64,000 nt of DNA, taken from contig OY769902.1 of assembly GCA_963669175.1 (NCBI GenBank), positions 4,096,001-4,160,000 on the forward strand, given 5' to 3'. The position numbers and the translations under genes are program-made. This stretch comes from a bacterium (GTDB taxonomy: Bacteria > Electryoneota > Electryoneia > Electryoneales > Electryoneaceae). Of this stretch, positions 9,475 to 51,453 are shown piece after piece. The notes below the pieces were generated by a model, which was not told the origin of the DNA, made no database searches, and saw nothing but the letters and a program-made list of their open reading frames with translations. Each line of letters starts with the position of its first letter. Position 1 is the stretch's first letter.

Positions 9475-9507
9475 GGGATTCACCCTATAATACATACTGA
9501 AGCTGGC

Positions 9508-9642
9508 TTGGCCCGACTGCGTGCAGTCGGGTTTCAACCTTCATCAAATGGAATACAATTTTATATTTAACGGGTGGGTGAATATCCAGTAGTAAAGAAC
9601 GCTATCCCATCTGCATCCCGACAGCAAGCAGTCGGGCCAAAC
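9508..9642. repeat. REP-like inverted doublet, family B (TTGGCCCGACTGC..GC.GTCGGG)
   Basis: Units at 9508-9531 and 9614-9642 in opposite orientation; the same doublet occurs at 61211-61318. Confidence 0.8.
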
Positions 9643-9695
9643 ATACATTTCAGTTCAAGCCAAATTCATCATGTTTTCTTAGCAGGGATTCTCCC

Positions 9696-10994
9696 TTACA
9701 ACCTGTATCCCAAACTGAAGCGTAGAACGGTAAACGCCCGGAACCGTTCGAAGCTGCGGTCCCAGATCGGGTGGACATAATCGGTTTCCGATTCGGATAC
9801 ATCAGGACGGCTTCCCATGACATAGGTATGCAACAGCTCAAACTGACCACCAAAATGACGACTGAAGCCGAATTCGATTCCCAGTTGAATTAACCACGCT
9901 GCGAAGAAATTGGTTTCTCGAGTTTTTTCGCTGCCACTGAGGCTTTTAATCGTTACTTCCCGTTGCACAGCGCCCAGCCCGAGGCCGATATAAGGGCCGA
10001 AATGGTCTCTTGATCCGGAATAGATAAGCGTAGAATGGAATGTCAGCGATTTGGACAACGGATCTCCGGCCGCACCATAGGACTGCAAATCTGCCGGATC
10101 AATATCGCGTACTATCCCGGTGAAAGTGTACAGTCCGAACCGGATACGCCACTGGTTGCCGAAGCTCGCTGCCGCCCCCCAGCTCTGACCGTCTTTCATA
10201 CGGACTTCATTATCGAACGAAGAGCTACTCTGCCCGATAGGCCAACCGCCGCTTACCCAGGTCCGCATGTAAATCGGTGATTTTTCCGTATTGCTGACAC
10301 CTTTCAGCCGCAGTTTCACGTGTACGGAATCGCCCTGCCCGACTTTAACACTTTCCTGCCGTGGATGATGACCGGCCCTTGAAGCGGAAACGGTGTATTT
10401 CACGCCCCCGGGAAGTTCCGCGTGTACCGGCGCCATGCCCCAGGAAACGCCATCGATATTAACAGCGCTGGCTGGAGGATTTGTTGTCACATAGAGAATG
10501 CCATTCTGATTAACAAGCTGTGCAGCAACTGTTTCAGCGAGTTTTTCCAGTGTCTTGCGGGCTTCCTTCGCGTCACCTTCTACCGTCTTGTTTTCCAGCT
10601 TTTCCAGCTTGCCTTCGACCACATTTACAATACGAAGTTCCAGCATCCAGGTCTGGTCAAAGCGCTGAATTTTCCCATCAACGATATAATCGATCCCATT
10701 CTCTGTGCCATACCCCACCAGTTCATCCAATGCAGCATACTCGGCGCCACCCAGACGATCACGTGAATACACCAGCACATCAGTTACCGGCGCAGCAATA
10801 TCGAGACGTGGATTTTTCTTTAACGCAGATAGAATAACGTCTTCAAACCCCTCCACATCTTCTTCAGGAATATTCACAGCGATCAGTTCATACAGGGCAG
10901 CCGTTGACATAGTCTCGTCCGCAAACGAAGCAAACGGCAGCGCGATGATGAGCGAACATGCAGCCAGAAGGATGATGCGAGAAGTAAAAACCAT
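9696..10994 (-). CDS. Exported PEGA-domain protein with CsgG/TolB-N-like N-terminal domain and C-terminal outer-membrane beta-barrel
   Basis: Signal peptide from ATG 10994; GILYVTTNPPASAVNIDG (PEGA); amphipathic strands ending FSLGYRL. Confidence 0.65.
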   Translation of the reverse strand: MVFTSRIILLAACSLIIALPFASFADETMSTAALYELIAVNIPEEDVEGFEDVILSALKKNPRLDIAAPVTDVLVYSRDRLGGAEYAALDELVGYGTENGIDYIVDGKIQRFDQTWMLELRIVNVVEGKLEKLENKTVEGDAKEARKTLEKLAETVAAQLVNQNGILYVTTNPPASAVNIDGVSWGMAPVHAELPGGVKYTVSASRAGHHPRQESVKVGQGDSVHVKLRLKGVSNTEKSPIYMRTWVSGGWPIGQSSSSFDNEVRMKDGQSWGAAASFGNQWRIRFGLYTFTGIVRDIDPADLQSYGAAGDPLSKSLTFHSTLIYSGSRDHFGPYIGLGLGAVQREVTIKSLSGSEKTRETNFFAAWLIQLGIEFGFSRHFGGQFELLHTYVMGSRPDVSESETDYVHPIWDRSFERFRAFTVLRFSLGYRL

Positions 10995-10995
10995 A

Positions 10996-11766
10996 TCAAG
11001 TACCCTTGCCCGGTTTTTCCACCGGGATTTTTCCCTGTTTGGCGCGATCCATGAACAATTCCATCTGGTGGAACAAACCGTGTAGAATCTGGACATCACG
11101 TTGTTCCAGCAAACCACGGTCAAACACACGTCCCAGCACCAGTTCCAGCCCTTCCACATCCGGTTTCGGGATCATGCCTGCCGCGACAGCGGTCTTGGAG
11201 GCGTGTTCCATCAGACGCTTTCTTGCCCCACGTTCGGCCGGTTCCCAGGGATATCTCGGCATTGGACCACGCGCTGCTCGTGACAGTTCCCGGCATACCA
11301 GCATAACCGATTGCGCCAGGTTCAGCGATGGATAAGCTGTACGCATGGGAATTGTAACCCACCAGTCGCCGAGAAGCAGCTCCGATCCGGTCATGCCCCA
11401 CTCTTCACGTCCGAACACAATCGCCACCGGTCCGTGTTCAGCAGCGCCAAGCAGGTGTGGCGCGACCGATTCAACAGGAAAAATGGGACGAGCTCGTCTG
11501 CGACGACGCGCGGTAGTAACGGCAACCGTCCGCATCCCCTCGACCGCTTCCGCCAGGGTAGCGTATTCCTCCACACCCTCCAGTACATCCCCGGCGCCGA
11601 CAGCAACCGCCTTGGCCTTGCCACTGCGCCATATTCCGGTTCCGGTCACCAGCAGACGGCTCAGGCCCATGGTCTTCATGGCACGTGCGGCGGCGCCGAC
11701 ATTCTCCGGACGGGCCGGTTCTACCAGGACAACCGCAATGTTTCGGAGACGGTCATCTCCGGCCAT
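10996..11766 (-). CDS. trmJ: SPOUT tRNA/rRNA methyltransferase, TrmJ/LasT family
   Basis: VVLVEP..PENVGAAARAMKTMG, AIVFGREEWGM, YPSLNLAQSV. The start could extend to 11895. Confidence 0.85.
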   Translation of the reverse strand: MAGDDRLRNIAVVLVEPARPENVGAAARAMKTMGLSRLLVTGTGIWRSGKAKAVAVGAGDVLEGVEEYATLAEAVEGMRTVAVTTARRRRRARPIFPVESVAPHLLGAAEHGPVAIVFGREEWGMTGSELLLGDWWVTIPMRTAYPSLNLAQSVMLVCRELSRAARGPMPRYPWEPAERGARKRLMEHASKTAVAAGMIPKPDVEGLELVLGRVFDRGLLEQRDVQILHGLFHQMELFMDRAKQGKIPVEKPGKGT

Positions 11767-37540: not shown

Positions 37541-40500
37541 ATGTCGCAACGAAGTGCGTTAAAGAACGATTTAAGCAGGTATAAAAAGCTCGTAAAAAAA
37601 AATCCGCTGCTGTTTTCACGGGTTGCGGATATCGAGCTGAAGCTTGGACAGTACAAATCTGCTCGCAAACGCTTGGAAGATGGCCTGCGTTATCATCCCG
37701 ACCATTCGACGGGACGATTGCTGCTGGCCAAGGCGATGGAAAAAACCGGTTCACGTGAAGAGGCTATTGACGAACTGCGTACCCTGGTTAAACAGGAGCC
37801 AATGAATACCCGGGCAAGGCGTGAGTTTATCGCGGCCCTGACCGATTCCGGGCATACCGATGAATTACGACGCCAGATGTTCCAGCTTTACCAGATTGAT
37901 CCGGAAGACAAACAGAGTCGTAAAGGGCTTCGAACCCTGATCCTGGCAAAAGTCCGGGAAAAACACCCCAATATTCACGATTGGCCGGAAGAGTGGCTGC
38001 TTGCGGATTTTACCCGTGAAGGCGCGTTGGCCAAACGTGTAGCTCGTGACATGAACCTCGCAGAGGAACGCCCCTGCCCCCCGGACGATGTGGTTCCCGC
38101 GCTGGAAGACACCGATATCATCGATACCAAGGATGAATTGCGCAGACTGGGCGAACCGCTTGATCAACCATCTGTGGCAGCCCCGAAAAAACAACCTGAC
38201 ACTCCTGAAACTGCTGTTGAGGTCAGCCAGGAAGACCTCGATGAAACCATGCATGGCGAACTTAATACTCCAGAAGAATGGCAGCTCGATAAACAGGAAG
38301 CTACCGGTACGGTAACAACCGAACCGGTTGAAGAAATTGGTGACGAGGCGACGGAAGCAGATGAGGATGATTCCGCCCTTGCTGCATTGCAGGCGGATAT
38401 GGCGGCAATGCAGTTCGATCAGGAAAAACATGCTGCACCAACAGAAATGAAAGATGAAACACTAGTGGGAGATGAAGCTTCAACTGTTGCCACCTTTGAT
38501 GTGGAGCCGTTGCCGGATGACACCGAAGCGGAAGCGGGAATGATGGCTGAACCTGCGGATGAAACGGTTCTGGAAGCTGAAACAAGTGTTGATGAAGAAG
38601 TAACAACCATTGAAGAACCTGGCATTCCGACAGAAGAGGCTGACGACACATCGCTGGAAGATGAAGAAACGGATGAAACTGAAGACGAGGAACAAGAGGA
38701 AGAGGAAGAGGAAGAGGAAGAAGAGGAATATAACCCGGTCAAGGAAGCGCTAAGAGCTGCCGGACTTGAACCGAAAAATTATGTAGACGTTAAGAAGTTG
38801 CTTGCTTTGACTGAGCAGGAAGAACCGTCATTAATCCAGAAACCTTCCATAAAGAAGGCTGCCAAACGCCAGAAACCAGCCCCGACAGAAGAAAAACCGG
38901 TAGATGACGCTGAGGCCGCAACTGCCCCGGTTCAGTTGCCCGCAGATCAAGAGCAGAAATCGGCCGCAGAAGATAAAGCTGGCGATGAGTCAGGAAAAAC
39001 TGCACCGGCTGAAACGGATGCCGCAACGCAGCCGGAAGAACAGACACCTCAGGTAGAAATTGATGACCTGGACACCTCATTCTCGAAATCGGATATTGAC
39101 TCGATGTTTAAGGAAGCTGGCATTACAAGCAAAGAAGAACTTCAACAGATGCAAAAAGAAGAACACGAAGAATTGAAACAAGAGGATTCAAGCGAAACCA
39201 TCGAGCCGGGTGATATAGAAGAAGAGAAACCGGAAGAGCCTGCTCCTGCCGATGTCCCGGAAGCAACAGATACTGAATCCGCTGATTTCAACCAGGCGGA
39301 TCTGAATGCACTGTTTGATCAAAAACAGGATGATGAGGATAGCAGCTCCTTCAGCCAGGACGATATCAACGCGCTTCTGAAAGGTGGCGCATCGAAACCC
39401 GAACCCGCGCCCGAACCGGAAGAGGAACCCGCCCCATCCGCAGGCGGAGGATCGTTCAGCCAGGACGATATTGACGCACTCCTGAAAGGCGGCGCATCGA
39501 AACCCGAACCCGAGCCGGAACCTGAGCCCGAACCGGAAGAAGAACCTGAACCGTCAGCAGGTGGCGGCTCCTTCAGCCAGGATGATATCGACGCGCTTCT
39601 GAAAGGCGGCGCTTCCAAACCGGCCCCCGAACCCGAACCGGAAGAAGAACCTGAACCGTCAGCAGGTGGCGGCTCCTTCAGCCAGGACGATATTGACGCA
39701 CTCCTGAAAGGTGGCGCATCGAAACCCGCGCCCGAACCGGAAGAAGAACCAGAACCGTCAGCAGGTGGCGGCTCCTTCAGCCAGGATGATATCGACGCGC
39801 TTCTGAAAGGCGGCGCTTCCAAACCGGCCCCCGAACCCGAACCGGAAGAAGAACCAGAACCGTCAGCAGGTGGCGGCTCCTTCAGCCAGGATGATATCGA
39901 CGCGCTTCTGAAAGGCGGCGCATCGAAACCGGAACCCGAGCCAGAACCCGAGCCTGAACCGGAAGAGGAACCCGCCCCGTCAGCAGGTGGCGGTTCCTTC
40001 AGCCAGGACGATATCGACGCGCTTCTGAAAGGCGGCGCATCGAGACCGGAACCGGAGCCAGAACCTGAAGAGGAACCCGCCCCATCAACAGGTGGCGGTT
40101 CCTTCAGCCAGGATGATATTGATGCACTCCTGAAAGGTGGCGCATCGAAACCCGAACCCGAACCGGAAGAGGAACCCGCCCCATCCGCAGGCGGAGGATC
40201 GTTCAGCCAGGATGATATTGACGCACTCCTGAAAGGCGGCGCATCGAAACCGGAATCCGAGCCCGAACCGGAAGAGGAACCGGCCCCGTCAGGAGGTGGT
40301 GGTTCGTTCAGCCAGGATGATATTGACGCACTCCTGAAAGGTGGCGCATCGAAACCGGAACCCGAGCCCGAACCGGAAGAGGAACCGGCCCCATCCGCAG
40401 GCGGAGGATCGTTCAGCCAGGATGATATTGACGCACTCCTGAAAGGCGGCGCATCGAAGCCAGAGCCAGAAGAAAATGAAATGTCCCAAGCCGCTGCACG

Positions 40501-41593
40501 TACGCTTCAGGAATTGGACGCGAACGATGACTTTGATTTCGAAATCGGGTTCAGCCAGGATGACCTTGATGAATTGATTCAGGCCAAGAAAGAAATGGAT
40601 CGAAAGCCGGCAGCGCCTCCTTCACTTGGTCAGAAGGGGCCGCTAGGTCAGGATGACATCTCGGCCCTGTTTGCCAACCGAAGCCAGGTAAAAACTGAAG
40701 AGCCTCTGGCTGAACAGAAAGCAGAAAAACCTGTCGAAGATATCCCCGTTGAAGCAGTCGGTAACACAGGCAAGCCATTCAACCAGGACGATATTTCTGC
40801 ACTCTTCAGCCAGGTGAAGGAAAAAGGACAGGAAGCACACGAAGAGTTGGTGGAAGAATCGCTGGAAGACGAGCAACCGACTTCAGTTGCAGATATCATG
40901 AACGCCGCGCCGGATGAATCCCCAGTGGAAATGGCGGCCAGTGAGGCTGAAGCAATCGAAACTGAGACTGATAAAGTTGTACCAGTTGAAGAAGAAGAAG
41001 AAGTAGCAGCCGAAACGCCTGAAGCAGATGAAGCTCAGGAAATTGCAGCTTCGGAAGACATGCCTGTATCGCCATCAAAAACAACCCTGTTCAACCAGGA
41101 TGATATCAACTCCCTGCTTCGTGACATGGGCAGTATTCGTAGATCCGGTCCCAAACCGACTATTTCGCAAACCTTGTCCCAACCTCCCGCTGAACCGGAA
41201 ATACCGGAAGAAGCTGCGGAAGAAGTTGAATTGGCCGCAGAGCCGGTTATTGAGAAAGCTGCCGCCCAGAAAGATCCAGATGGCAGGTTTGACCTTGATC
41301 AATGGTTCCATTCCAAGCAGGATGATCAGGAAGCCGGCCCGACGCCCGAGAAGCCTTTGCCCAAACCGGCAAAGCCCCAGCCCCCTGTTGGGCAAGCGGG
41401 GACAAGCGCGCGCAAGGCCGTATTGCGTGGACCGGTCACAAAGACATTTGCGCGCCTGTTGTTGAAACAGGGCCACTCAGACCTTGCCTCTATCATTGCA
41501 CACCGGTTGTATTTGTTGAACCCGGAAGACCCGGAAGTGATTGATCTCCTGGCCGAGTCCATCTCCGGTATGGAAGAACCGGACGTCGAGTAG
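37541..41593 (+). CDS. TPR protein with long acidic disordered region carrying arrayed FliM-N-like peptides
   Basis: N-terminal TPRs; Glu/Pro-rich centre with 11 tandem FSQDDI(D/N)ALLKGG units; C-terminal TPR-like TKTFARLLLKQGH; GGAGG RBS; no signal peptide or TM helix. Confidence 0.85.
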   Translation: MSQRSALKNDLSRYKKLVKKNPLLFSRVADIELKLGQYKSARKRLEDGLRYHPDHSTGRLLLAKAMEKTGSREEAIDELRTLVKQEPMNTRARREFIAALTDSGHTDELRRQMFQLYQIDPEDKQSRKGLRTLILAKVREKHPNIHDWPEEWLLADFTREGALAKRVARDMNLAEERPCPPDDVVPALEDTDIIDTKDELRRLGEPLDQPSVAAPKKQPDTPETAVEVSQEDLDETMHGELNTPEEWQLDKQEATGTVTTEPVEEIGDEATEADEDDSALAALQADMAAMQFDQEKHAAPTEMKDETLVGDEASTVATFDVEPLPDDTEAEAGMMAEPADETVLEAETSVDEEVTTIEEPGIPTEEADDTSLEDEETDETEDEEQEEEEEEEEEEEYNPVKEALRAAGLEPKNYVDVKKLLALTEQEEPSLIQKPSIKKAAKRQKPAPTEEKPVDDAEAATAPVQLPADQEQKSAAEDKAGDESGKTAPAETDAATQPEEQTPQVEIDDLDTSFSKSDIDSMFKEAGITSKEELQQMQKEEHEELKQEDSSETIEPGDIEEEKPEEPAPADVPEATDTESADFNQADLNALFDQKQDDEDSSSFSQDDINALLKGGASKPEPAPEPEEEPAPSAGGGSFSQDDIDALLKGGASKPEPEPEPEPEPEEEPEPSAGGGSFSQDDIDALLKGGASKPAPEPEPEEEPEPSAGGGSFSQDDIDALLKGGASKPAPEPEEEPEPSAGGGSFSQDDIDALLKGGASKPAPEPEPEEEPEPSAGGGSFSQDDIDALLKGGASKPEPEPEPEPEPEEEPAPSAGGGSFSQDDIDALLKGGASRPEPEPEPEEEPAPSTGGGSFSQDDIDALLKGGASKPEPEPEEEPAPSAGGGSFSQDDIDALLKGGASKPESEPEPEEEPAPSGGGGSFSQDDIDALLKGGASKPEPEPEPEEEPAPSAGGGSFSQDDIDALLKGGASKPEPEENEMSQAAARTLQELDANDDFDFEIGFSQDDLDELIQAKKEMDRKPAAPPSLGQKGPLGQDDISALFANRSQVKTEEPLAEQKAEKPVEDIPVEAVGNTGKPFNQDDISALFSQVKEKGQEAHEELVEESLEDEQPTSVADIMNAAPDESPVEMAASEAEAIETETDKVVPVEEEEEVAAETPEADEAQEIAASEDMPVSPSKTTLFNQDDINSLLRDMGSIRRSGPKPTISQTLSQPPAEPEIPEEAAEEVELAAEPVIEKAAAQKDPDGRFDLDQWFHSKQDDQEAGPTPEKPLPKPAKPQPPVGQAGTSARKAVLRGPVTKTFARLLLKQGHSDLASIIAHRLYLLNPEDPEVIDLLAESISGMEEPDVE
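39347..40470 (+). repeat. Coding tandem repeat, 11 units of about 99-117 bp
   Basis: TTCAGCCAGGA(C/T)GATAT recurs 11 times; units differ by the number of PE dipeptides. Confidence 0.95.
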
Positions 41594-41612: not shown

Positions 41613-42218
41613 GTGAAGACACTTCCTGCGATTGGTCTGACAGGTAATATCGGATGTGGAAAATCAACCGTAGCTGCTGTCTGGCAGGAGCTGGGCGCAA
41701 CGATCATCGACGCTGACCAGGTTGGACGTGATGTTGTTGCTTTCGAGACTGAATACCTGGACTGGCTGAAAGATCGGTTTGGGACGAGTATATTCTCCGG
41801 TGACGCACTGAATCGTGCCGTACTGGGCCGAATTGTCTTTTCTGATAAGCAAGCGCGAGATGATATGAATCATCACATCTGGCCTTTTATCAGCCAACGC
41901 CTATCCGACGCTATAACATCAGCCCGATCCGGTGAACAAATTCCTGTAGTCGATGCTGCCTTGATTTTTGAATGGCAGGACGCATCGCGTTATGACGAAA
42001 TTGTCGTTGTAACTTGCGATGTTGATCAGGCCATTGCGCGTGCAGCCATACGAATGAATCTTACCGTCGATGAGATGCGGGACCGTTCCAGGAGCCAGAT
42101 TTCACAGGAGGAAAAAGCGGCTCGTGCGCACTACGTTTTGCAGAATACCGGAACGCTAAGAGAATTGAAAGAAAAAGCGGCACATTATTGGCATGATTGT
42201 GTCGCGCGTTTTTCTTGA
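41613..42218 (+). CDS. coaE: Dephospho-CoA kinase
   Basis: IGLTGNIGCGKSTV, IIDAD, LNRAVLGRIVF, DAALIFE; GTG start with GGGGAG RBS. Confidence 0.95.
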   Translation: MKTLPAIGLTGNIGCGKSTVAAVWQELGATIIDADQVGRDVVAFETEYLDWLKDRFGTSIFSGDALNRAVLGRIVFSDKQARDDMNHHIWPFISQRLSDAITSARSGEQIPVVDAALIFEWQDASRYDEIVVVTCDVDQAIARAAIRMNLTVDEMRDRSRSQISQEEKAARAHYVLQNTGTLRELKEKAAHYWHDCVARFS

Positions 42219-42284
42219 GAAATTCTGACAAACCTGGTTTTGGTCTCTCAGGTTGCCATGCCAGGTTATTTGGAGGGGAAACAG

Positions 42285-43871
42285 GTGCGGGGTTTACAAC
42301 GTCTTGCAATTATCCTGATGCTATGTGCTGTATTTGTTTCAGTGCAGGCTCAGACCGACGGTGATCCTCAGGATCAACGGGAAGATGCTACCGCCCCACC
42401 GCCGCAAATTGCCGGGGAGCTGGAGCTGGAGAAGGCCCTGTCGGAGCGGCTTGAAGAGATGCTTCAGCCACTGGTCGGACCAACGGTGGTCATGGTGGAC
42501 ATCACCCTCGGTGAGGTGCCCGTTGAATTGCAGGGGTACATTTACAGCCAGTCTCGCAGTCTGCCGGGATTACCGGTTTCAGTGAGTGAAGATGTTCGCA
42601 GAATGCAGGAATCCGGCTGGTATTTCAGTGAGATATCCAAAACCATTATTCATGTATTTGTTTCGGGATCCATGTCGGAACGTGAGATTGAACGTATACA
42701 CGAACTGATCCCGATCTGGATTTCTATCAATTCCAGTCGCGGTGACCAGATTATTATTGAACGATCACCATTCATCAATCCCCCGTTGACCCTTATTCAG
42801 TATCTATACTCGAAGCGAGGGTTGTGGACCGCAATCCTTATCCTTGCAGGCCTGATTGTGCTTGCCGGAGTTGTCTACTCCGCGATTTCCAGGTTTTCGC
42901 GCTACCGTATGGTGGAATCACCTGTCGGCCATGAGCAGGAAGGCGGCGGCGCTAGCATGTCCACCACAGACCTCGCCAAATTGTTGGGAATGGCAATGGG
43001 CGGTGGCAGCGGTGCTGGTGGTGTTGGCGGAACCGCGCCCGGCGGTGGCGTTGGCGGCGGGTCCGGCGGCGTTGGCGGCGGCGGTATTGGCGGCGGCGCT
43101 GGCGGTGCTGGTGGCGTTGGCGGAGGCGCTGGTAGCGATGCTGCGATATTGAGTCTGCCTGATGGTGAGATTCCCATCCGAATTGTGCGCGACAAGGAAT
43201 CAGAGGGGAAAAACCGTGGTGTTCTGGCAAAAGTAGCCAACATGAACGCACTTAGCCTCCTCAAATTGATCGAAGGAGAGAGCCCTGACTTTGCAGCGCT
43301 GGCGTTAACCTCGGCCAAGCCTGACATTGCCGGTAAAATTATTGGTGAACTACCGGAACAACAGAGAAAAGAGATCCTGGCTTATTGGGATATCCTGGAG
43401 AAAAACGATGCGGACAAGATCAACCAGATGGTTGAGCGTATCCGCAAGAAGCATACAACAGTCAGCTCTGTAGCCATTTCTCTTGGCGATGGGACCGCGA
43501 AGCTTTCGAACATCATCAACGCTCTGCCTGATCGTGAAGCGCAGGAACTTTACGCCAGCCTGACCAATGCTGATCCCGCCCTGGCAAAGCGTGTGCGCAA
43601 GAGTGTATTCTTCCTCAGCGACTTGATGAACCTGGAAGAGGCCACACTGAAACGTGTTGTTCTGCGTCTCCCGAACCCGACGCTCGCAGCTCTGATATCT
43701 ACTGCTTCAGATGATGTAAAGAATGTCGTATTCGCTTGTCTGTCACGACGGGCGATCAACATGGTGTCTGAGGAAATGGCCATGCGTCGTTCCAAGTCAC
43801 GTGACCGCATAGCCGAAGCAAAACGCACCTTCCTGGATACGTTGCAGCAGGTGCAGGAAACCAGTTTGTGA
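42285..43871 (+). CDS. FliF(RBM3)-like periplasmic domain, TM helix, Gly-rich linker and FliG middle/C-terminal domains in one fusion protein
   Basis: Signal peptide (VQA|Q). FliF-like LEEMLQPLVGP and INSSRGDQIIIERSPF. FliG-like ESPD, DPALAKRVRKSVFFLSDL and LSRRAINMVSEEM. GGAGG 8 nt before GTG 42285. Confidence 0.8.
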   Translation: MRGLQRLAIILMLCAVFVSVQAQTDGDPQDQREDATAPPPQIAGELELEKALSERLEEMLQPLVGPTVVMVDITLGEVPVELQGYIYSQSRSLPGLPVSVSEDVRRMQESGWYFSEISKTIIHVFVSGSMSEREIERIHELIPIWISINSSRGDQIIIERSPFINPPLTLIQYLYSKRGLWTAILILAGLIVLAGVVYSAISRFSRYRMVESPVGHEQEGGGASMSTTDLAKLLGMAMGGGSGAGGVGGTAPGGGVGGGSGGVGGGGIGGGAGGAGGVGGGAGSDAAILSLPDGEIPIRIVRDKESEGKNRGVLAKVANMNALSLLKLIEGESPDFAALALTSAKPDIAGKIIGELPEQQRKEILAYWDILEKNDADKINQMVERIRKKHTTVSSVAISLGDGTAKLSNIINALPDREAQELYASLTNADPALAKRVRKSVFFLSDLMNLEEATLKRVVLRLPNPTLAALISTASDDVKNVVFACLSRRAINMVSEEMAMRRSKSRDRIAEAKRTFLDTLQQVQETSL

Positions 43872-43881
43872 GGAAACGAGC

Positions 43882-44637
43882 ATGAAGCTTACATCTTTGT
43901 TTGGTCTGCTCATGGGCCTCGGACTGGTATTCGTTGCAATCATTTCCCGTGGCAGTCTGCTGCAGTTTATCAGTATTGAGTCCATCTTTATTGTGCTGGG
44001 TGGCACTGTCGGCGCCACTCTGCTGTCCTTCAACCGGGATCAGCTTGAAATTGCAATCCGCGCAATTCGTGTCGTCTTCTTCGATACCACTCCCCCACCG
44101 GATAACCTGATCCCGATTATGGTGGACCTGGTAAAACAGGCGCGTGTGAATGGTGTTGGTTCATTGGAAGTTCCTGAAGGCGAGGGCGAACGAAATGAGT
44201 TCCTCCACAAAGCAGTGGACATGCTGATTGACGGTATTGAACCGAGTGTCGCCGCTCAGATTTTGCAGGGCGAATCGGACGCTATCGCATCACGCTATCG
44301 TATGAGCGAGCGACTGTTCACAGTCATGGGCACATATACCCCTCTGTTCGGATTGTTGGGCACAGTCATCGGTCTGATCATCATGCTTTCCAGCGTAAAT
44401 GATCCCATGGCTATCCCGGGCGCGATGGCGGTTGCCATGTTGACCACATTTTACGGCGTTCTGTTCAGCGCCATGATTTTCCGTCCCATGGCGACCAAGA
44501 TTCGCGCATGGAACTATGATGAAATCCAACTGCGTGACCTGATTATCGAAACCATGATGCACATTTCTGAAGGTGTCAACTCGCAGATTTCGCAGGAACG
44601 TCTGCAATCGCAGTACCGTACCCGGAGGCGTGGCTAA
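43882..44637 (+). CDS. motA: Stator A subunit (MotA/PomA/MotP family)
   Basis: IVLGGTVGA; ARVNGVGSLE (conserved Arg/Glu); PLFGLLGTVIGLI; AMAVAMLTTFYG. Confidence 0.93.
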   Translation: MKLTSLFGLLMGLGLVFVAIISRGSLLQFISIESIFIVLGGTVGATLLSFNRDQLEIAIRAIRVVFFDTTPPPDNLIPIMVDLVKQARVNGVGSLEVPEGEGERNEFLHKAVDMLIDGIEPSVAAQILQGESDAIASRYRMSERLFTVMGTYTPLFGLLGTVIGLIIMLSSVNDPMAIPGAMAVAMLTTFYGVLFSAMIFRPMATKIRAWNYDEIQLRDLIIETMMHISEGVNSQISQERLQSQYRTRRRG

Positions 44638-45338
44638 TGGCAGGCCCTCGTCGCTGGAATCCCAAGAGAAGACGGGTCATCGAACCGGAACATGAAGGTG
44701 AACCCTGGCTGACCACGTATGGCGACCTGATGACGTTGCTGCTGGTGTTCTTTGTCCTGTTCTACATCTTTTCCGTAACGGGGCAAATGCCTTTCCTGAA
44801 AGAAGCGTTTGAACGCTTCCAGATGAAATCGGAAGCGCCCGCCGCACTTGACGCACAGGAATTTGAACAGATCGAGGAAGCCGGTGGTGAAATCGTCATT
44901 TCAATCCCTTCCAACGTCCTGTTTGACCTGGGACAAGCTGATATCAAACGGGAAGCGATGTATGTTTTGCAGGATGCGGTAAAACAGATCAAAGATCATT
45001 TGATAGATGCGCCACATGCGCAGATACGTGTGGAAGGCTACACCGACAACCTGCCGATCCATAATTACCAGTTCCGTTCCAATTGGGAACTCTCGGCTGC
45101 TCGTGCTATTGCTGTGGTTAAATACCTGATTGAAATTGAAGGATTTAAGCCCGAGCGTTTGCAGGCTATGGGGTATGGTGAGTACAACCCTGTCGTTCCG
45201 AATGATACCGCGGAAAACCGTCAGAAGAACCGTCGTGTTGAAATCAAGATTGTCAAATCTCCCGTTGACCAGAGCTTTGACGAGCTTTCCACGGGCGCAC
45301 CTTCTGGATTCCCATCGCAACAGGCGAGGAACGAATGA
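44637..45338 (+). CDS. motB: Stator B subunit (MotB/PomB/MotS family) with OmpA-like peptidoglycan-binding domain
   Basis: WLTTYGDLMTLLLVFF; VEGYTDN.PI; SNWELSAARA; NRRVEI; TAATG overlap with motA. Confidence 0.95.
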   Translation: MAGPRRWNPKRRRVIEPEHEGEPWLTTYGDLMTLLLVFFVLFYIFSVTGQMPFLKEAFERFQMKSEAPAALDAQEFEQIEEAGGEIVISIPSNVLFDLGQADIKREAMYVLQDAVKQIKDHLIDAPHAQIRVEGYTDNLPIHNYQFRSNWELSAARAIAVVKYLIEIEGFKPERLQAMGYGEYNPVVPNDTAENRQKNRRVEIKIVKSPVDQSFDELSTGAPSGFPSQQARNE

Positions 45339-48300
45339 AGCGGGTACGCTGGCATCTTTTCCTGTTGCTTTTTCTTCCGCTCTGCACGTTTGCTCAGAGC
45401 CGGATTGATCTCTCCCCCTGGCCGGGAAACATGGCCTGGTTTGGTGAAGGCACCCAGCGTGTCGGTGTCGCCATCGCCTCCGGTGATATGAATGGCGACG
45501 GTCTCTGGGATGTGGCCATTTCAGCGCCGGGCACAAGAAACAACTCCGGTGATGTATATGTATTCCTGGGCGATGGAGTCACGTTCGATTCAGTTCGTTT
45601 TGATAATCCCGCTGCAGAAGCCAACCTTGTCATAGAGGGTACTGCCGGGTTACAGATCGGTGTCAAGCTGGTGATGGGTGATCTGAACGGTGACGGACGT
45701 GACGATCTGGTCATCGGCGCGCCCCATGCCGACGACAGTCGCGGACGAGTCTGGGTTATCTTCGGCAGCGCATCTCCTTCCGGGACGGTTACTGAACCGG
45801 ATGTTGAAATCTTCGGCAGTGCGGACGGCGATCACTGTGGACGCGCCATTGGTATTACCAACATCGGTGACGATGCCTACAACGACATTGTCATCGGCTC
45901 CCCCAATGCAGACCCTCGCCAGCGAGACAGCGCGGGACGTGTTGATGTTATCGCCGGACGGGCTTCCTGGCCGGAAAACATATCCCTTTCTACACAGGCA
46001 TCGACTGTAACCGTATTTGGCGGCCAGACCGGTGAACAACTGGGTGAAGCCATCAGCGTCTGCCCCATTTTCCAGGGGACATTACTGGGCAACAACCTTA
46101 ACGGCGACGGGTATGGCGACCTGATTATCGGCGCTCCGGGACGAACCTACGCAGGGCGTACTGGCGCTGGCGCTGTCCATATTTTCGTCACCCCGGAAAG
46201 CCTGGCAGATACGGTAGACCTTACCACTGACAACGTCCCACTTCTGCAAGACTACCGTCAGCTCGGCGGCGCACAGACCCTGGATCTGACCGGCCGCGCT
46301 ATCGCTTCGTTTAACACAACGGGAATTCGTGGTGTCCTGATCGGCGCTCCGGCAGCGTTGCAGGACGGAGTGCGTGGCGGCGCTTTTTATTATATCACCT
46401 GGGATGAGATCAACACGGCCGCTCCTTGGGCAGATCTTCGGCAGGCAACCTACTTCCGGGTGAAATTTACCGGCGCGGCGGAGGATGATTCACTCGGCGC
46501 AGCGGTTGCAGGTATTGATGAGCTGATGATGGCGGCAGCGCCCGGGGCGAATTACCGGGCACGGGAAGAAGCCGGGCAGGTGGTTGCGATAACCGACAAC
46601 CCGATTCTGACAGGCATAATCCGTGTCGATACCCTTGACGCCAATGTCCGTCACTTTTTCGGTGCCGGTGCGGGCCATGACCTCGGTCGCTCACTGACCA
46701 TTGCTGATCTCGATGACGATGGCATCTTTGATCCCATCATGGGATCACACTCCCATACAGACTATGCCGGGGCTGTTCACGCCGTACGTGGCGGGCTGCC
46801 CTATTTCTTCAACATTTACCCGGCGCCGGGACAGGGAAATATTCCCAGCGAAGATACCCTGTCTTTCCGCATCAGTGATGATGAAACAGGAATTGCGACA
46901 GCCAGTTTTATCATGATCCTGGATGGCATCACGTACAACATTAACCATCCTGGTGTCAGCTACGAGATGAACGACGGGATCTATTCCTTTGAGCTGGTCC
47001 CGGAAGAACCCTTTGATATCAATGTTCCGATCAACGTGATCACCCATATCACAGACACACAGGGTAACCGTTCACCGCTCTGGTATTACCAGTTCATCAC
47101 CGGTCAGGATGTCACTGCGCCGTATCCCACTCAATTCTCCCCCGCACCGGGCGAAGTAAATGTCGCGACCACACGTGACATCGCCTTCAGTCTGCGTGAT
47201 GCCGGAGATGGTGTTGACAGCACGACAATCATGGTCGTGATTGATACGGATACGGTCCGCCAGGGCGATCCAGAGATGAGAATCAGCGGTTCCATTTCCA
47301 ATTACCGTGTCGTGATCAATCCCGAGTCTTCCTTGCCGCCAGACGCACAGATTGACGTACGAATTGAAGCGGCTGACCTTACGGAGCCATCCCCCAATTG
47401 GATGACACCGTACGATTATTTCTTCTTTACCTCACTAGATACAATTCCGCCGGAACTGGTTTTCATTTACCCGGAACCGGGCGTAACGATTGATGTCGGA
47501 ACCAAAATCAATTTCAGAATCATTGATACCGGATCAGGGGTAAATGCAGATTCTACCAAAATCCTTCGCACTCAGCAAAGTGGTGAAGAATACGGCGATC
47601 TGTTATTCGAAGCCATCTCACAGGGATACGCGTTCGTTCATAATCCTGAGAATAATCCCTATGATTCCGGGCTGTTGCAACTGACGGCACAATCACGTGA
47701 CCTGGCTGATGATCCCAATATCATGGAGGATTCAACCTGGTCCTATAATGTCATTGTGGATAACCGTGCGCCTGAACTGACTGAAGCGATACCGCACCCG
47801 GATAGTGTGGGATCAGCACGAAACACGCCGATTACCCTGACCATCATGGATAACGCGGCGGGGATCGACTCCACCACCTTGCAACTCGAAATTGATAATG
47901 TCTTTATCGCCCATCGCAATATCATCTGGGAACGCATCGAGCATCTTGGTTACCGGATTACCTACCAGCGTTCAGAAGGCATATACGGCGACAGTGTGAT
48001 CGTCCACCTGAACGTGTTTGACAAAACAATCCCGGACGGTATCGAACTGGATACCACATATATTTTCTATCCCGAGAACGATGATGAGCCGCCTTATTTC
48101 CTACTGGTTGATCCGCCGCAGGGATCGGAAGGTGTATCTGTGGAAGATTCCCTGATATGGGAAGCCGCGGACGACATGACCGGAATCGACCCATCCAGCG
48201 CCTACATCTCGATCAACAATGCGGACCATTCCGTACTGTTGCGATACAATACCCACCCTGTCACCCAGGGCGCACAATACAGGTTCGTCTATACTCCGCC

Positions 48301-50005
48301 GTTATCGCTGCCTTATGAGGATACGGTCAGTGTCCGCTTCGGCATCAGTGATAACGAGGAACCGTCCAATGACGCGATCCTCGTGTATGAGCTGTTTACC
48401 GAGCCGGATGAATACCCGCCCTACCTGACCAATTTGAGCCCGTATCCGGGACAGATCGGCGTATCTCGTGGCGCGGATATCGTGTTCCATGTTCTGGACG
48501 CCGGGGTTGGTGTGGCGCGTGATTCGCTGCATCTCGCCATTGATGGAATCGCCGTAGCCAATGAGAACATCTACTGGGAAGAGGTTGAACAGGGATATGC
48601 TTTCCGTTACAATCCGCCTGGTCTGTTCGGTCATACGGATACAGTGCATGTATCCGTGACCTGCTATGACCTGGCAACCTCACACAACCGTATGGATGAA
48701 TCTTACTGGTTTGTCACGCTCCGAGATGACCGTGAACCTCCCTACATGGAAGAGGAACAACCGGCTGATTCTTCCGGAGGTGTATCACCAGATATTATCC
48801 TCAGTTTCGACCTGAAGGATGACGGCGAAGGTGTCGATACCAGCTATACTACAATCCAGAACATGGACGATCCCCTCTGGATAGCGACACGTGAAGTAAC
48901 ACCTATCATCAACGGTTTCCACTATGTGCTGGCCCCGGCAACCGATTTCCTGTACAGCGATACGGTGACGATCGGCGTGAACGCTCGTGATCTTGCAGAA
49001 CCGGCGAATGTGACACCGAATCCGTTGACATTCTCTTTCTACACCCAGTTGGATGACGCTTCCCCCTTCTTTACCGAGCTGCAACCTGCGCCGGACTCTA
49101 GTATTACCTATAACCGTCCAGTCAGCTTTGAAGTTATCGATATGCTCGCCGGGGTTGACACATCCGATGTCCACATCTTCATTGATTCGGAAGAAATCAC
49201 GAATAACAGTGACGATTACGAAATCCTTATCGAGGAAACAGCCGACGGCTGGCGGTATACCTATACGCCGTACGATGGTTGGAATGTGAGCACAACCTAT
49301 TCTGTGACGCTTTCCGCTGCCGACTATTCCAATATTCGCAACGAGATCGATTCAACCTACCAGTTTGAGGTCATTCCTGACCTGGTCGCGCCGTATGTAA
49401 ATAGTTTTGCGATTGTCCGACTGGTTAACGATACTCTTGCTGTGGTTGACAGCACCAGCATCACCCTTGACGATTACCTCTATTTCGAAGTGCTGGATGA
49501 CGGCATCGGGGTAGATGCGAATTCGATCCGTCTCGAACTGGGCGGACGTAACGCCCCGGAACCAGTTCTTACCCAGGAGCTGGAAACCGGTTACTATCGT
49601 GTGTACCGATTGAGCGACTGGAATTCTGTCGGTCCACAGTACCTATTCCCCGGCCAGCAGGTGCAGGCATATATCAGCGCTCGCGACCTGTCGGTTCCGG
49701 AAAACACGCTGACTCGTGACAAGCATACGTTCTATATTCCACCTCCCGATGTGGAGCTGCTGGTCATTCCAACGACCATTACTCCGAACGGTGACGGTGT
49801 CTGGGATGAAGCGCTGATCTATCATAAGGGATCTTCATCGGCTTCCGTGGATTTCTTCGACATGCGCGGGCGTAAAGTTGCTACAGTCCAGGGCAACCCG
49901 GCAAGCTGGAACGGCAACGATGACAGCGGCGAACCCGTACCGGGTGGATTATACATCTTCCAGGTCAGCGGCGGTGGCCAGGGCACAATTGCGGTGGCAC
50001 GATGA
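45335..50005 (+). CDS. Giant secreted FG-GAP (integrin-alpha-like propeller) and Ig-repeat protein with type-B-like T9SS CTD
   Basis: Signal peptide; GD.NGDG..D..IGAP repeats; nine D..PP...P.PG...D.G.GVD Ig-like modules; CTD IPTTITPNGDGVWD...FDMRGRKV...WNG...GLYIFQV; ATGA overlap with motB. Confidence 0.85.
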   Translation: MKRVRWHLFLLLFLPLCTFAQSRIDLSPWPGNMAWFGEGTQRVGVAIASGDMNGDGLWDVAISAPGTRNNSGDVYVFLGDGVTFDSVRFDNPAAEANLVIEGTAGLQIGVKLVMGDLNGDGRDDLVIGAPHADDSRGRVWVIFGSASPSGTVTEPDVEIFGSADGDHCGRAIGITNIGDDAYNDIVIGSPNADPRQRDSAGRVDVIAGRASWPENISLSTQASTVTVFGGQTGEQLGEAISVCPIFQGTLLGNNLNGDGYGDLIIGAPGRTYAGRTGAGAVHIFVTPESLADTVDLTTDNVPLLQDYRQLGGAQTLDLTGRAIASFNTTGIRGVLIGAPAALQDGVRGGAFYYITWDEINTAAPWADLRQATYFRVKFTGAAEDDSLGAAVAGIDELMMAAAPGANYRAREEAGQVVAITDNPILTGIIRVDTLDANVRHFFGAGAGHDLGRSLTIADLDDDGIFDPIMGSHSHTDYAGAVHAVRGGLPYFFNIYPAPGQGNIPSEDTLSFRISDDETGIATASFIMILDGITYNINHPGVSYEMNDGIYSFELVPEEPFDINVPINVITHITDTQGNRSPLWYYQFITGQDVTAPYPTQFSPAPGEVNVATTRDIAFSLRDAGDGVDSTTIMVVIDTDTVRQGDPEMRISGSISNYRVVINPESSLPPDAQIDVRIEAADLTEPSPNWMTPYDYFFFTSLDTIPPELVFIYPEPGVTIDVGTKINFRIIDTGSGVNADSTKILRTQQSGEEYGDLLFEAISQGYAFVHNPENNPYDSGLLQLTAQSRDLADDPNIMEDSTWSYNVIVDNRAPELTEAIPHPDSVGSARNTPITLTIMDNAAGIDSTTLQLEIDNVFIAHRNIIWERIEHLGYRITYQRSEGIYGDSVIVHLNVFDKTIPDGIELDTTYIFYPENDDEPPYFLLVDPPQGSEGVSVEDSLIWEAADDMTGIDPSSAYISINNADHSVLLRYNTHPVTQGAQYRFVYTPPLSLPYEDTVSVRFGISDNEEPSNDAILVYELFTEPDEYPPYLTNLSPYPGQIGVSRGADIVFHVLDAGVGVARDSLHLAIDGIAVANENIYWEEVEQGYAFRYNPPGLFGHTDTVHVSVTCYDLATSHNRMDESYWFVTLRDDREPPYMEEEQPADSSGGVSPDIILSFDLKDDGEGVDTSYTTIQNMDDPLWIATREVTPIINGFHYVLAPATDFLYSDTVTIGVNARDLAEPANVTPNPLTFSFYTQLDDASPFFTELQPAPDSSITYNRPVSFEVIDMLAGVDTSDVHIFIDSEEITNNSDDYEILIEETADGWRYTYTPYDGWNVSTTYSVTLSAADYSNIRNEIDSTYQFEVIPDLVAPYVNSFAIVRLVNDTLAVVDSTSITLDDYLYFEVLDDGIGVDANSIRLELGGRNAPEPVLTQELETGYYRVYRLSDWNSVGPQYLFPGQQVQAYISARDLSVPENTLTRDKHTFYIPPPDVELLVIPTTITPNGDGVWDEALIYHKGSSSASVDFFDMRGRKVATVQGNPASWNGNDDSGEPVPGGLYIFQVSGGGQGTIAVAR

Positions 50006-51453
50006 GAAGGCGTGGATTATCAAGAGGCCTGCAAGTCCTGATCAGCGTTTCACTGCTGGTTCTGCTGTTCTCCGCCCTGCCGACTCATGCGGCGTTTGAA
50101 GTGCTTCCGGGTAAACGTGCAACCGCGCTAGGCGGCGCTGTAGTGGCATCCGGCGGCGATCCGATGGGCTTCTACATCAATCCAGCCTCGATTGCCTGGG
50201 GCACAGTCACCTCGGTTGAAACCTTCTACATGAAGCCATTCTGGGGACTCGACGGCGATGCGCTGTCACGTTCGGCGATAAGCGGTTACGGCAGCCTCGG
50301 CGACTGGGGCGCTATCGCGCTTGGTTATGACCAGTTCGGCAGCGATCTATATAGTGAAAACCGTACGCTGTTGAGCTATGCCCGTAAACTCACGATGTAC
50401 GAACGCATGTTCACCGTGGGCGTTTCGCTTGAATTCCTGGGCCGCAAATATGCCGAGACAGAATATACCGCCATCGACCCGCTGTTCATTGAATATGGCT
50501 ATTCCAAGCGTTCTGTAGGTATCGACATCGGCATGCAGATGCGCCTGACCTCACGTATGACTGCGGGGCTGGCAATCCGTCGTATCAACAAACCGAACCA
50601 GGCGCTGGAAGACGGTGTGGATGATCCGCTGCCCCGTGAAATCCAGGCGGGTGTATCCATGCGCTTCACCCGTTTCATGCTGTATACGGATATTGAGTAC
50701 CGCGACCGTTCGCTCAACGGTGCAGACGTTTCGCCTCGACTGGGCGTAGAATTTCCGCTGTTCAACAATGCGCTGCACTTGCGTGGCGGCGGCAACCGAG
50801 ACGAAGTTGCGCTTGGCTTCGGGCTGAATATCTGGAAACACGACAGCGAAAAGAGCTACATGAGCAGTGCGGATGAGTCCGGCGCTCGTGAACGCAGGCG
50901 CGATATCAAAAACGCCACTTTGCGTGTCGGGTATACGTTCCGCTTCCCTATCGGAGGTGTGAGCGGCACTATCGGCCACCATATGCTGGGTATCGATTTT
51001 TACTTCGAACGGAAGCGTACGGTAATGGAACGGGTGCGTCAACCGCGTCCGGTCCAGGTGCCCCAGATTATCGTGGAAACGGATACGGTGCTGGTCGAGA
51101 AACCGGTGCTGGTGCATGAATTCGTTGAAGACACCAGCAAGGTGGAACTGCTCGAGGCCCGGATCACCGACCTTGAATCACAGCTTTCCCAACTGGTAAA
51201 CATGAACACGGCCATCCGTGAAGTGGAAATCGCTCAACGCCTGTTCTTGCAGAAAAACTACCAGGAAGCCCTGAATGCCTGCGACCGTGCCACCCGCCTC
51301 GTCCCCACACTGGCCCTCGCCTGGGTACAGAAAGGCTCGATCTACTACGCTATGGGACGCTACGGCGATGCCCGGACCGCGTGGAACCGAAGCCTGCGCC
51401 TCGATCCGAAACGGGATGATGTGAGGCAGTATTTGAAGCAGTTGCCGGAGTAA
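50002..51453 (+). CDS. PorP/SprF- or PorV-like outer-membrane barrel with C-terminal coiled coil and TPRs
   Basis: RATALGGAVVA...YINPA; GLAIRRINKPN; amphipathic strands; C-terminal TPRs (AWVQKGSIYYAMG); ATGA overlap with the upstream gene. Confidence 0.75.
   Translation: MRRRGLSRGLQVLISVSLLVLLFSALPTHAAFEVLPGKRATALGGAVVASGGDPMGFYINPASIAWGTVTSVETFYMKPFWGLDGDALSRSAISGYGSLGDWGAIALGYDQFGSDLYSENRTLLSYARKLTMYERMFTVGVSLEFLGRKYAETEYTAIDPLFIEYGYSKRSVGIDIGMQMRLTSRMTAGLAIRRINKPNQALEDGVDDPLPREIQAGVSMRFTRFMLYTDIEYRDRSLNGADVSPRLGVEFPLFNNALHLRGGGNRDEVALGFGLNIWKHDSEKSYMSSADESGARERRRDIKNATLRVGYTFRFPIGGVSGTIGHHMLGIDFYFERKRTVMERVRQPRPVQVPQIIVETDTVLVEKPVLVHEFVEDTSKVELLEARITDLESQLSQLVNMNTAIREVEIAQRLFLQKNYQEALNACDRATRLVPTLALAWVQKGSIYYAMGRYGDARTAWNRSLRLDPKRDDVRQYLKQLPE

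Follow-up and report, generated by a model that had tools for sequence, protein, structure and literature searches.

A soluble, TPR-capped protein of the Electryoneaceae with 17 FliM-type docking motifs: a candidate multivalent scaffold for CheY-P

Introduction

Phosphorylated CheY (CheY-P) normally meets its docking peptide as one copy per molecule of FliM, FliY or CheZ, and about 34 FliM molecules are found per flagellar C-ring. Here, we describe a gene whose product carries a peptide of this type 17 times. It lies in a stretch of 64,000 nucleotides (hereafter, the window) from a bacterium of the family Electryoneaceae (phylum Electryoneota; GenBank assembly GCA_963669175.1, contig OY769902.1, positions 4,096,001 to 4,160,000 of the forward strand), within a genome of 5.45 Mb that was assembled as a single contig. 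The open reading frame (37541..41593 of the window, + strand; open under translation table 11) encodes a soluble, acidic protein of 1350 amino acids, in which a long disordered region is bordered on both sides by tetratricopeptide repeat (TPR) units. We propose that this protein may dock CheY-P in a multivalent manner, as a soluble scaffold or sponge, a reading drawn from sequence comparisons that we hold with about as much belief as doubt.

The peptide concerned, known as the EIDAL motif, is reported to be a high-affinity site for CheY-P in the available text of 2 sources (10.1101/2022.04.21.489128, PMC6946799), the first of which also reports, as far as its available text goes, that the motif is necessary and sufficient for the binding of FlhG. 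The repeats described here share with this peptide of FliM/FliY, and with the C-terminal peptide of CheZ, the same 10-residue acidic pattern and a predicted short helix in a disordered chain. They differ in being present in 17 copies rather than one, in being internal rather than terminal, and in their carrier, a soluble TPR-capped protein that has no FliM middle, SPOA, CheC or CheZ domain. Two further systems invite comparison. The polar hubs HubP and FimV, as described in the available part of PMC12918733, also have a long acidic and largely unstructured cytoplasmic region, imperfect repeats and a TPR-type end unit, and the clients of HubP include, in the source text at hand, FlhG, FlhF and chemotaxis arrays. 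The “LID” repeats of CheA (core EFExLLD) are likewise short, acidic and amphipathic, and sit on a flexible linker in a chemotaxis protein; according to the available text (10.1101/2025.10.27.684771), they differ in having another core, in occurring in 3 copies, and in their proposed partner, which is a CheW-like domain rather than a receiver domain.

Results

A FliM-type peptide repeated in tandem and dispersed

A regular expression for the docking motif returned 17 matches in the protein, of which 11 are arranged in tandem and 6 are dispersed. The tandem array (residues 604-967; 39350..40441, +) is made up of FSQDDI(D/N)ALL units, with FSQDDINALL at residue 604 and FSQDDIDALL at residues 639, 678, 713, 746, 781, 820, 855, 888, 923 and 958. 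The units follow each other at 33-39 residues on Gly/Pro/Glu spacers of the form GGGS...KGGASKP(E/P)n, and Tandem Repeats Finder placed the repeat at 39345-40458, with a period of 105 nt, 10.5 copies and 82% matches. The dispersed copies found by the same expression, all on the + strand, are FSKSDIDSMF (residues 514-523; 39080..39109) and FNQADLNALF (583-592; 39287..39316) ahead of the array, and FSQDDLDELI (1004-1013; 40550..40579), LGQDDISALF (1035-1044; 40643..40672), FNQDDISALF (1080-1089; 40778..40807) and FNQDDINSLL (1184-1193; 41090..41119) behind it. An earlier note, which had been made from the letters of this DNA alone, listed the same 11 units and 6 variants, and all of them were recovered exactly. 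Its assignment of the repeats to the FliM-N/CheZ-C type of peptide is borne out as well: the 11 units and 6 variants conform to the EIDAL-type pattern (hydrophobic-S-Q-x-(D/E)-I-D-A-L-L), and FSQDDIDALL is identical in 8 of 10 residues to LSQDEIDALL, the N-terminus of the canonical FliM of the same genome.

We then compared these counts with the number of motifs expected by chance. In 5000 composition-preserving shuffles of the whole protein, the mean number of matches was 0.002, versus 17 observed; for the disordered region outside the tandem array, 0.0012 matches were expected by shuffling, versus 6 observed. None of the 5000 shuffles attained the observed counts. A six-frame scan of the 5.45-Mb genome with the strict motif found it once in FliM, 16 times in this open reading frame, and in 7 copies of an unrelated repeated frame of 310 amino acids. 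In other words, this protein displays many times a peptide that is shown elsewhere in the cell once, on FliM. The 310-amino-acid frame contains LTQEDLSRLL and is present in 7 copies of equal length (contig C1, 1196374, 1205234, 2322986, 3406427, 3693306, 3997119 and 4366454); it is probably an insertion-sequence gene, in which the motif would be a chance match.

Conservation of the motif among orthologues

The collection contains 16 genomes of the family, which also represent its whole order and class. An orthologue, recognized by its N-terminal domain of about 195 residues together with the C-terminal unit, was found in 15 of these 16 genomes, the remaining one (G001) being an assembly of 390 contigs. 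We compared the 12 complete orthologues, leaving out the masked copy of G004 and the copies of G006 and G010, which are cut by contig ends. Motif copy number among them ranges from 0 to 17. With a relaxed pattern, 9 complete orthologues other than that of the window contain 3, 7, 2, 2, 3, 3, 4, 2 and 5 motifs, respectively; the orthologue of G007 has none, and that of G005 has a single relaxed match at residue 198, in the folded N-terminal domain, and none in its disordered region. The expectation of the earlier note that orthologues keep the motif thus held for 10 of the 12, at an overall identity of 29-35%, and failed for G005 and G007. In the G005 protein (L053 13220-15445, - strand), the docking motifs are replaced by about 13 copies of another acidic repeat, of the type EEEPALKQA.

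Tandem repeats can be expanded by slippage, and a neutral expansion within a disordered linker, yielding a motif without specific function, would fit the wide range of copy numbers among orthologues. It would also fit the fact that the copy number of the array has no independent confirmation: in public short-read contigs of a single sample, both flanks (38500-39406 and 40429-41200) are identical to the present sequence, and the exact number of tandem units is that of this assembly, since no public contig bridges the array. Several observations nevertheless make a neutral origin extremely unlikely. The 6 dispersed copies, 6 where 0.0012 were expected, have flanks that are unrelated to one another. 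When the 11 tandem units are compared, synonymous variants are seen at 5 of the 10 codons of the motif, and the sole non-synonymous change is D to N. Finally, the motif has been kept in most complete orthologues at the low overall identity given above. Expansion also took place independently in 2 genera, with a period of 33-39 residues here and a 43-residue period of FSQDDISKLF in G009. Together, the synonymous-biased variation, the dispersed copies with unrelated flanks and the independent expansions suggest that the motif is kept by selection.

Occurrence of the same motif on other proteins

A full-library phmmer search with residues 500-1350 as the query returned 166 proteins at E<=1e-3, and among the 150 listed of these 166, 105 carry at least 3 motifs. 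Pfam analysis of 78 of these 105 proteins assigned TPR_19 to 9, FliMN_C to 3, FliL to 3, and CheC, CheZ, CheX and zinc-ribbon domains to 2 each. Thirty array proteins were in addition scanned singly with Pfam, 15 of which matched no family at all. Among the proteins with recognizable domains are a true FliM with 5 motifs (P0089; named FliM/FliN, from a Vulcanimicrobiota metagenome-assembled genome), FliN proteins with 9 (P0027) and 3 motifs (P0073), CheC/CheX proteins with 4-5 motifs (P0059, P0064; the cluster of P0059 includes a FliN-named protein of the Oscillospiraceae), and a CheZ with 3 motifs (P0105). ComFB and HTH_3 array proteins have 3 motifs each. CheZ and CheC/CheX, which are chemotaxis phosphatases by their Pfam names, act on CheY-P. 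Because arrays are fused to these phosphatases, the motif is tied to CheY above other clients, and the array fusions to FliM, FliN/FliY, CheC/CheX, CheZ and FliL-like domains, taken as sequence evidence, point to the CheY/motor axis.

The layout of the array proteins varies. Two of them (P0018, P0021) have the TPR-array-TPR order seen in the window, and 59 of 156 consist of an array followed by one membrane segment and a C-terminal domain; the largest membrane-anchored cluster, of 26 proteins, includes P0012, which bears a FliL domain. The membrane-anchored arrays, with FliL-like, TPR or zinc-ribbon domains, have the same motif and the same arrangement on Pro/Glu-rich spacers as the protein studied here. 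They differ from it in that they are single-pass proteins with an N-terminal array, whereas the present protein is soluble, is capped by TPRs at either end and occurs only in a single class (16 genomes). In FimV/HubP-type proteins of Thalassotalea and a relative (P0005, P0003), the acidic cytoplasmic region holds at least 7 repeats built around DPDDIDALLAS. Judging by this shared core, what have been called “imperfect acidic repeats” may in some polar hubs be arrays of the same docking motif.

Motifs and chemotaxis genes in the class

The flagellar and che gene sets are complete in the genome of the window. The canonical FliM is followed by a FliY-like gene, and FlhF and FliA are encoded, with a MinD-like ATPase beside flhF that is FlhG by its position. 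There are 3 CheA loci, 118 receiver-domain matches and a canonical CheY, so that CheY-like proteins, on whose presence the proposal of the earlier note depended, are indeed encoded. This CheY (117 amino acids; C1:4727527-4727877) clusters with CheW, CheD and CheA; its best NCBIfam match is NF007901, at 111.7 bits, which is under the 189-bit cut-off of that model. In the CheY alignment, Y99 is found in at least 90% of the rows and K112 is invariant, residues that we take to be those contacting FliM. A search of the genome for the CheZ domain (PF04344) gave no match at E<=0.01. A gene located between those of CheY and a second receiver encodes a protein of 160 amino acids (L061 2394-2876, - strand) with a weak CheX match (E 0.002); in the absence of CheZ, this protein may be what dephosphorylates CheY-P.

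Across the class, CheY orthologues were called at E<=1e-30 and CheW by domain match. A CheY orthologue is present in 10 of the 15 other genomes (not found in G004, G005, G007, G011 and G015), and CheW domains are present in 12 of the 16 (not found in G003, G004, G005 and G007). All 10 complete scaffold orthologues from genomes with a detected CheY orthologue or CheW domain have 2 motifs or more, and the 2 from genomes in which neither marker was detected (G005 and G007) are motif-less. The motif therefore co-occurs with che genes, one of the checks set out in the earlier note; its co-occurrence with a FliG-like fusion, set out in the same place, did not hold, as genera g2 and g11 lack the fusion and keep motifs. 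G005 is apparently non-flagellate, with FliM, FlhA, FliG and FlhF not found as far as searched. In G003, the CheA-CheW cluster has been lost between conserved flanking genes, and both CheY and the motifs have been kept. Its CheY (L108, G003:C173, ~9136-11384) lies directly between homologues of the genes that flank the che cluster in the genome of the window; CheA, CheW, CheR, CheB and CheD seem to have been deleted and CheY retained. The same search for flanking genes in G004, G005, G007 and G011 gave distant matches in other contexts.

These genomes also bear on the possibility that the peptides dock the MinD-like ATPase FlhG, in which case the protein would be a soluble counterpart to the cytoplasmic portion of HubP/FimV and would set flagellar number and place. 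The available text of the sources cited above offers a basis for this, with EIDAL reported to bind FlhG and HubP reported as an FlhG partner. Moreover, FlhF, the adjoining MinD-like ATPase and FliA are encoded here in a genome without a FimV C-terminal domain over the cut-off (one sub-threshold match lies at another locus), and the FimV-named P0005 of Thalassotalea has its DPDDIDALLAS repeats in an acidic region. Against it stands G007, which retains FliM, FliG and FlhF despite its motif-less orthologue. Because the motif was lost there and the flagellum and FlhF were kept, CheY is favored over FlhG as the selecting client. The arrays on CheZ and CheC/CheX likewise point to CheY-P, and neither a membrane anchor nor a LysM domain is present by which the protein might mark a pole. 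We consider a role as an FlhG landmark unlikely, yet FlhG may be a second client, since the same peptide is its reported docking site.

Domain layout and predicted structure

The N-terminal folded domain (residues 1-195; 37541..38125, +) consists of about 3.5 TPR repeats and a conserved Trp-rich extension (W..W..DF..G). Pfam TPR repeats cover residues 25-120 (TPR_19 at residues 33-93, E 3e-11; TPR_14, E 6e-9), placing the protein among the TPR proteins by its tetratricopeptide repeats. Mean column identity of the domain is 41% (alignment A1, 11 orthologues). A profile search against the PDB matched OGT and consensus TPR proteins (E 4e-16), a fold search matched generic TPR superhelices (Z ~16), and a word-indexed homologue search with residues 1-200 found just 2 generic TPR proteins. 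At the other end, alignment A3, a profile search and a structure model identify a TPR-like unit (residues 1296-1341, RGPVTKTFA.L..QG...A; 41426..41563, +) with 9 invariant columns in A3; the last ~50 residues matched TPR proteins alone in the PDB profile search (2pl2, E 3e-5; PA4667, E 1e-3). The array is thus enclosed by TPR regions as first described in the earlier note, the C-terminal one being a single TPR-like unit. No useful row spanning both TPR ends was obtained in the fold search.

Asp and Glu make up 25-34% of residues 196-1200. The first acidic disordered stretch (residues 196-500) includes a poly-Glu run (386-395; 38696..38725, +), closely followed by a second conserved short element at residues 398-435 (38732..38845, +), NPVKEALRAAGLEPKNYVDVKKLL..., the consensus of which is kept across orthologues (alignment A6). 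A third conserved short element, RFDLDQWFHS (1249-1258; 41285..41314, +), is represented in orthologues by versions such as FNLKKWF and FDIDRWF. Their conservation suggests that these 2 elements are sites for further partners. The highest mean hydropathy over 19 residues is only 0.58, so the protein has no membrane segment, and no signal peptide was evident at the N-terminus when the sequence was read by eye. In a Pfam scan at E<=0.01, the protein matched TPR families, BTAD and, through low complexity, Trypan_PARP; there was no switch domain, with neither the FliM middle domain (PF02154) nor SPOA (PF01052) detected, and no CheZ domain.

This layout can be compared with that of HubP/FimV, which the earlier note had named as an alternative. 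The protein has the long acidic region with imperfect repeats of these polar hubs, and the repeats of P0005 share its DDIDALL core. It differs in lacking a signal peptide, a LysM domain and a membrane segment, in having a TPR domain at its N-terminus, and in a C-terminal unit without a TIGR03504 match (NCBIfam, E<=0.01), and it has no sequence homology to HubP/FimV beyond the motif. Homology of the C-terminus to that of FimV was rejected on the same basis, as the profile hits there are to generic TPR proteins only. A FimV/HubP-like hub is therefore retained as a working analogy and dropped as a family assignment.

We modeled the 769-residue orthologue of G008 with AlphaFold2, using 12 aligned rows. 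The predicted local distance difference test (pLDDT) was 85-97 for residues 1-200 and 91-94 for residues 720-769, with a disordered middle region. Short helices were predicted at the motif sites (381-389, 405-412 and 442-451; pLDDT 57-70), in the counterpart of residues 398-435 (helices 307-314 and 325-335; pLDDT 61-69), and in the counterpart of RFDLDQWFHS, which lies within a helix at 593-610 (pLDDT ~70). Co-folding of CheY (alignment A4, 19 rows) with one repeat unit (A5), run without controls, gave ipSAE values of 0.18 and 0.17, below the mark of 0.32, a result that speaks neither for nor against binding.

Gene neighborhood and origin of the scaffold

The gene directly downstream is coaE, encoding dephospho-CoA kinase (41613..42218, +; Pfam CoaE, E 1e-45; likely GTG start). 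The 2 genes are probably co-transcribed, since the likely GTG lies 20 nt past the stop codon of the scaffold gene. coaE directly follows the orthologue in all 11 fetched loci and in G007, and efflux genes of the HlyD/MacB-type/OEP kind lie upstream of the orthologue in 9 of the 11. A single-protein scan of genome contigs for related loci gave one irrelevant short match. In other families of the phylum, a TPR-linker-TPR homologue of 371-454 residues without motifs overlaps the stop of the OEP efflux gene by 8 nt; this overlap suggests that the scaffold gene once belonged to the HlyD/MacB/OEP operon. Such motif-less homologues are found at L105 3881-5245 (-) in G021 and L107 3409-4524 (-) in G026. 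We also considered whether the protein is a type I secretion substrate, given the HlyD, ABC-type and OEP genes upstream; this was rejected, as no RTX family match was found and the upstream permease is of the MacB/FtsX type (MacB_PCD plus FtsX). Exporters of this type draw their substrates from the periplasm.

The translational coupling of the motif-less ancestral gene to an efflux operon is among the observations that would suit acidic helices acting as stickers for a different client, such as a CheW-like or ParP-like domain or an efflux-linked partner, or self-assembly, in which the helices would form condensates with the TPR ends. Other observations in this direction are that CheA repeats with the core EFExLLD have been modeled on ParP (available text of 10.1101/2025.10.27.684771), that arrays are also found with ComFB, HTH_3 and zinc-ribbon domains, and that acidic-peptide-binding TPRs (HOP TPR1, Sti1) are among the fold matches, although their Z-scores of 13.5-14.7 do not set them apart from other TPRs. 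However, the motif is far nearer to FliM-N than to EFExLLD, and its occurrence alongside FliM, FliN, CheZ and CheC domains speaks for CheY. The array and the TPR part of 10 proteins that form one cluster lie on opposite sides of a membrane segment, so the TPR is not the general partner of the motif. We therefore see another client or self-assembly as a minor possibility.

Downstream of coaE, at 42240-51453 of the window (+), lies a five-gene cluster; of the 16 genomes in the class, 9 were found to have it. In the 543-residue membrane protein encoded by its first gene, 2 membrane segments enclose a periplasmic part, and there are also a Gly-rich linker and the middle and C-terminal domains of FliG; a YscJ_FliF_C match is weak and sub-threshold (E 0.016). 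The second and third genes encode MotA/PomA-like and MotB-like proteins, the fourth a 1556-residue FG-GAP/Big_5 protein bearing a type IX secretion signal of the CHU_C kind, and the fifth a PorP/PorV-like protein with TPRs. The cluster resembles a non-flagellar FliG/stator machine that is tied to type IX secretion cargo and its PorP/SprF-like partner; a homologue has been named in Candidatus Electryonea clarkiae.

The earlier note had suggested that the array stands in for the missing FliM input of this FliG fusion, 2 genes downstream. In this case, a 17-valent CheY-P hub would feed a non-flagellar, gliding-like rotor that has no FliM of its own and is made up of the FliF-like/FliG-like fusion, MotA/MotB, the 1556-residue adhesin and the PorP/SprF-like protein, and the array would be the missing switch input of that rotor. 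The cluster does follow coaE both here and in 4 of the 11 fetched orthologous loci, and it is present in the genomes with the 2 largest arrays (17 and 7 copies). The distribution across the class nevertheless speaks against such a link. Just 9 of the 16 genomes yielded a second FliG_C match of the paralogue type, none of them from genera g2, g5 or g11, of which g2 and g11 still hold 2-5 motifs; conversely, G008 has the cluster with just 2-3 motifs, and G007 has the paralogue and no motifs. In addition, coaE always separates the scaffold gene from the cluster. Because the motif persists in genera without the cluster, the link is not supported: we regard replacement of FliM at the FliG-like fusion as very unlikely, and give the gliding-like rotor fed by the array equally little credence.

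Discussion

From the anatomy, genomic specificity and conservation of this protein and the co-occurrence of its motifs with che genes, we infer binding, a client and a physiological effect as follows. The protein would be a cytoplasmic, non-membrane scaffold, in which a TPR N-domain and a single C-terminal TPR-like unit flank an acidic disordered chain of about 1100 residues. The chain gained docking peptides of the FliM-N type in this bacterial class, and tandem duplication of one of them in the present genome raised the total to 17. Each peptide is predicted to fold as a short amphipathic helix on the surface of CheY-P, as the single peptide of FliM does. As the peptides mimic the N-terminus of FliM, one molecule could bind numerous CheY-P simultaneously, in competition with the FliM of the motor. 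The scaffold could thereby serve as a buffer, sink or local reservoir that tunes the supply of CheY-P to the switch, with the TPR ends and the 2 other conserved short elements placing or clustering it.

A number of points weigh against a role in docking CheY-P. The orthologue lies between the HlyD/MacB/OEP operon and coaE, and no flagellar or che gene is a conserved neighbor. Given the motif-less homologue outside the class, the scaffold seems to be older than its motifs and its origin not to be flagellar. The split between genomes with and without motifs hangs on only 2 of the latter kind; both were assembled from metagenomes and are incomplete (87% and 91%), and genomes that share ancestry do not count as separate observations. 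G011 and G015 have motifs and no CheY orthologue at E<=1e-30, with CheW domains found in both. The similar acidic helix repeats of CheA (core EFExLLD) are proposed, in the available text of 10.1101/2025.10.27.684771, to bind ParP rather than CheY. Lastly, CheY is not the sole candidate client, as FlhG is also reported to bind the peptide.

A literature search, with supplements outside its scope, returned no description of multi-copy arrays of this peptide. The soluble, TPR-capped protein is best seen as a new variant within a class of multivalent CheY-docking arrays that is apparently undescribed. In many lineages, such arrays are also met on FliM, FliN, CheC, CheZ, FliL-like and polar-hub-like proteins, and the soluble form is the easiest of them to purify, which makes the question of valency directly testable. 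If docking of CheY-P is indeed its function, a free cytoplasmic protein with 17 CheY-P sites would represent a new layer of chemotaxis, acting as a buffer, a decoy or a local store of the signal, and one or two scaffold molecules would equal the number of sites of a whole motor.

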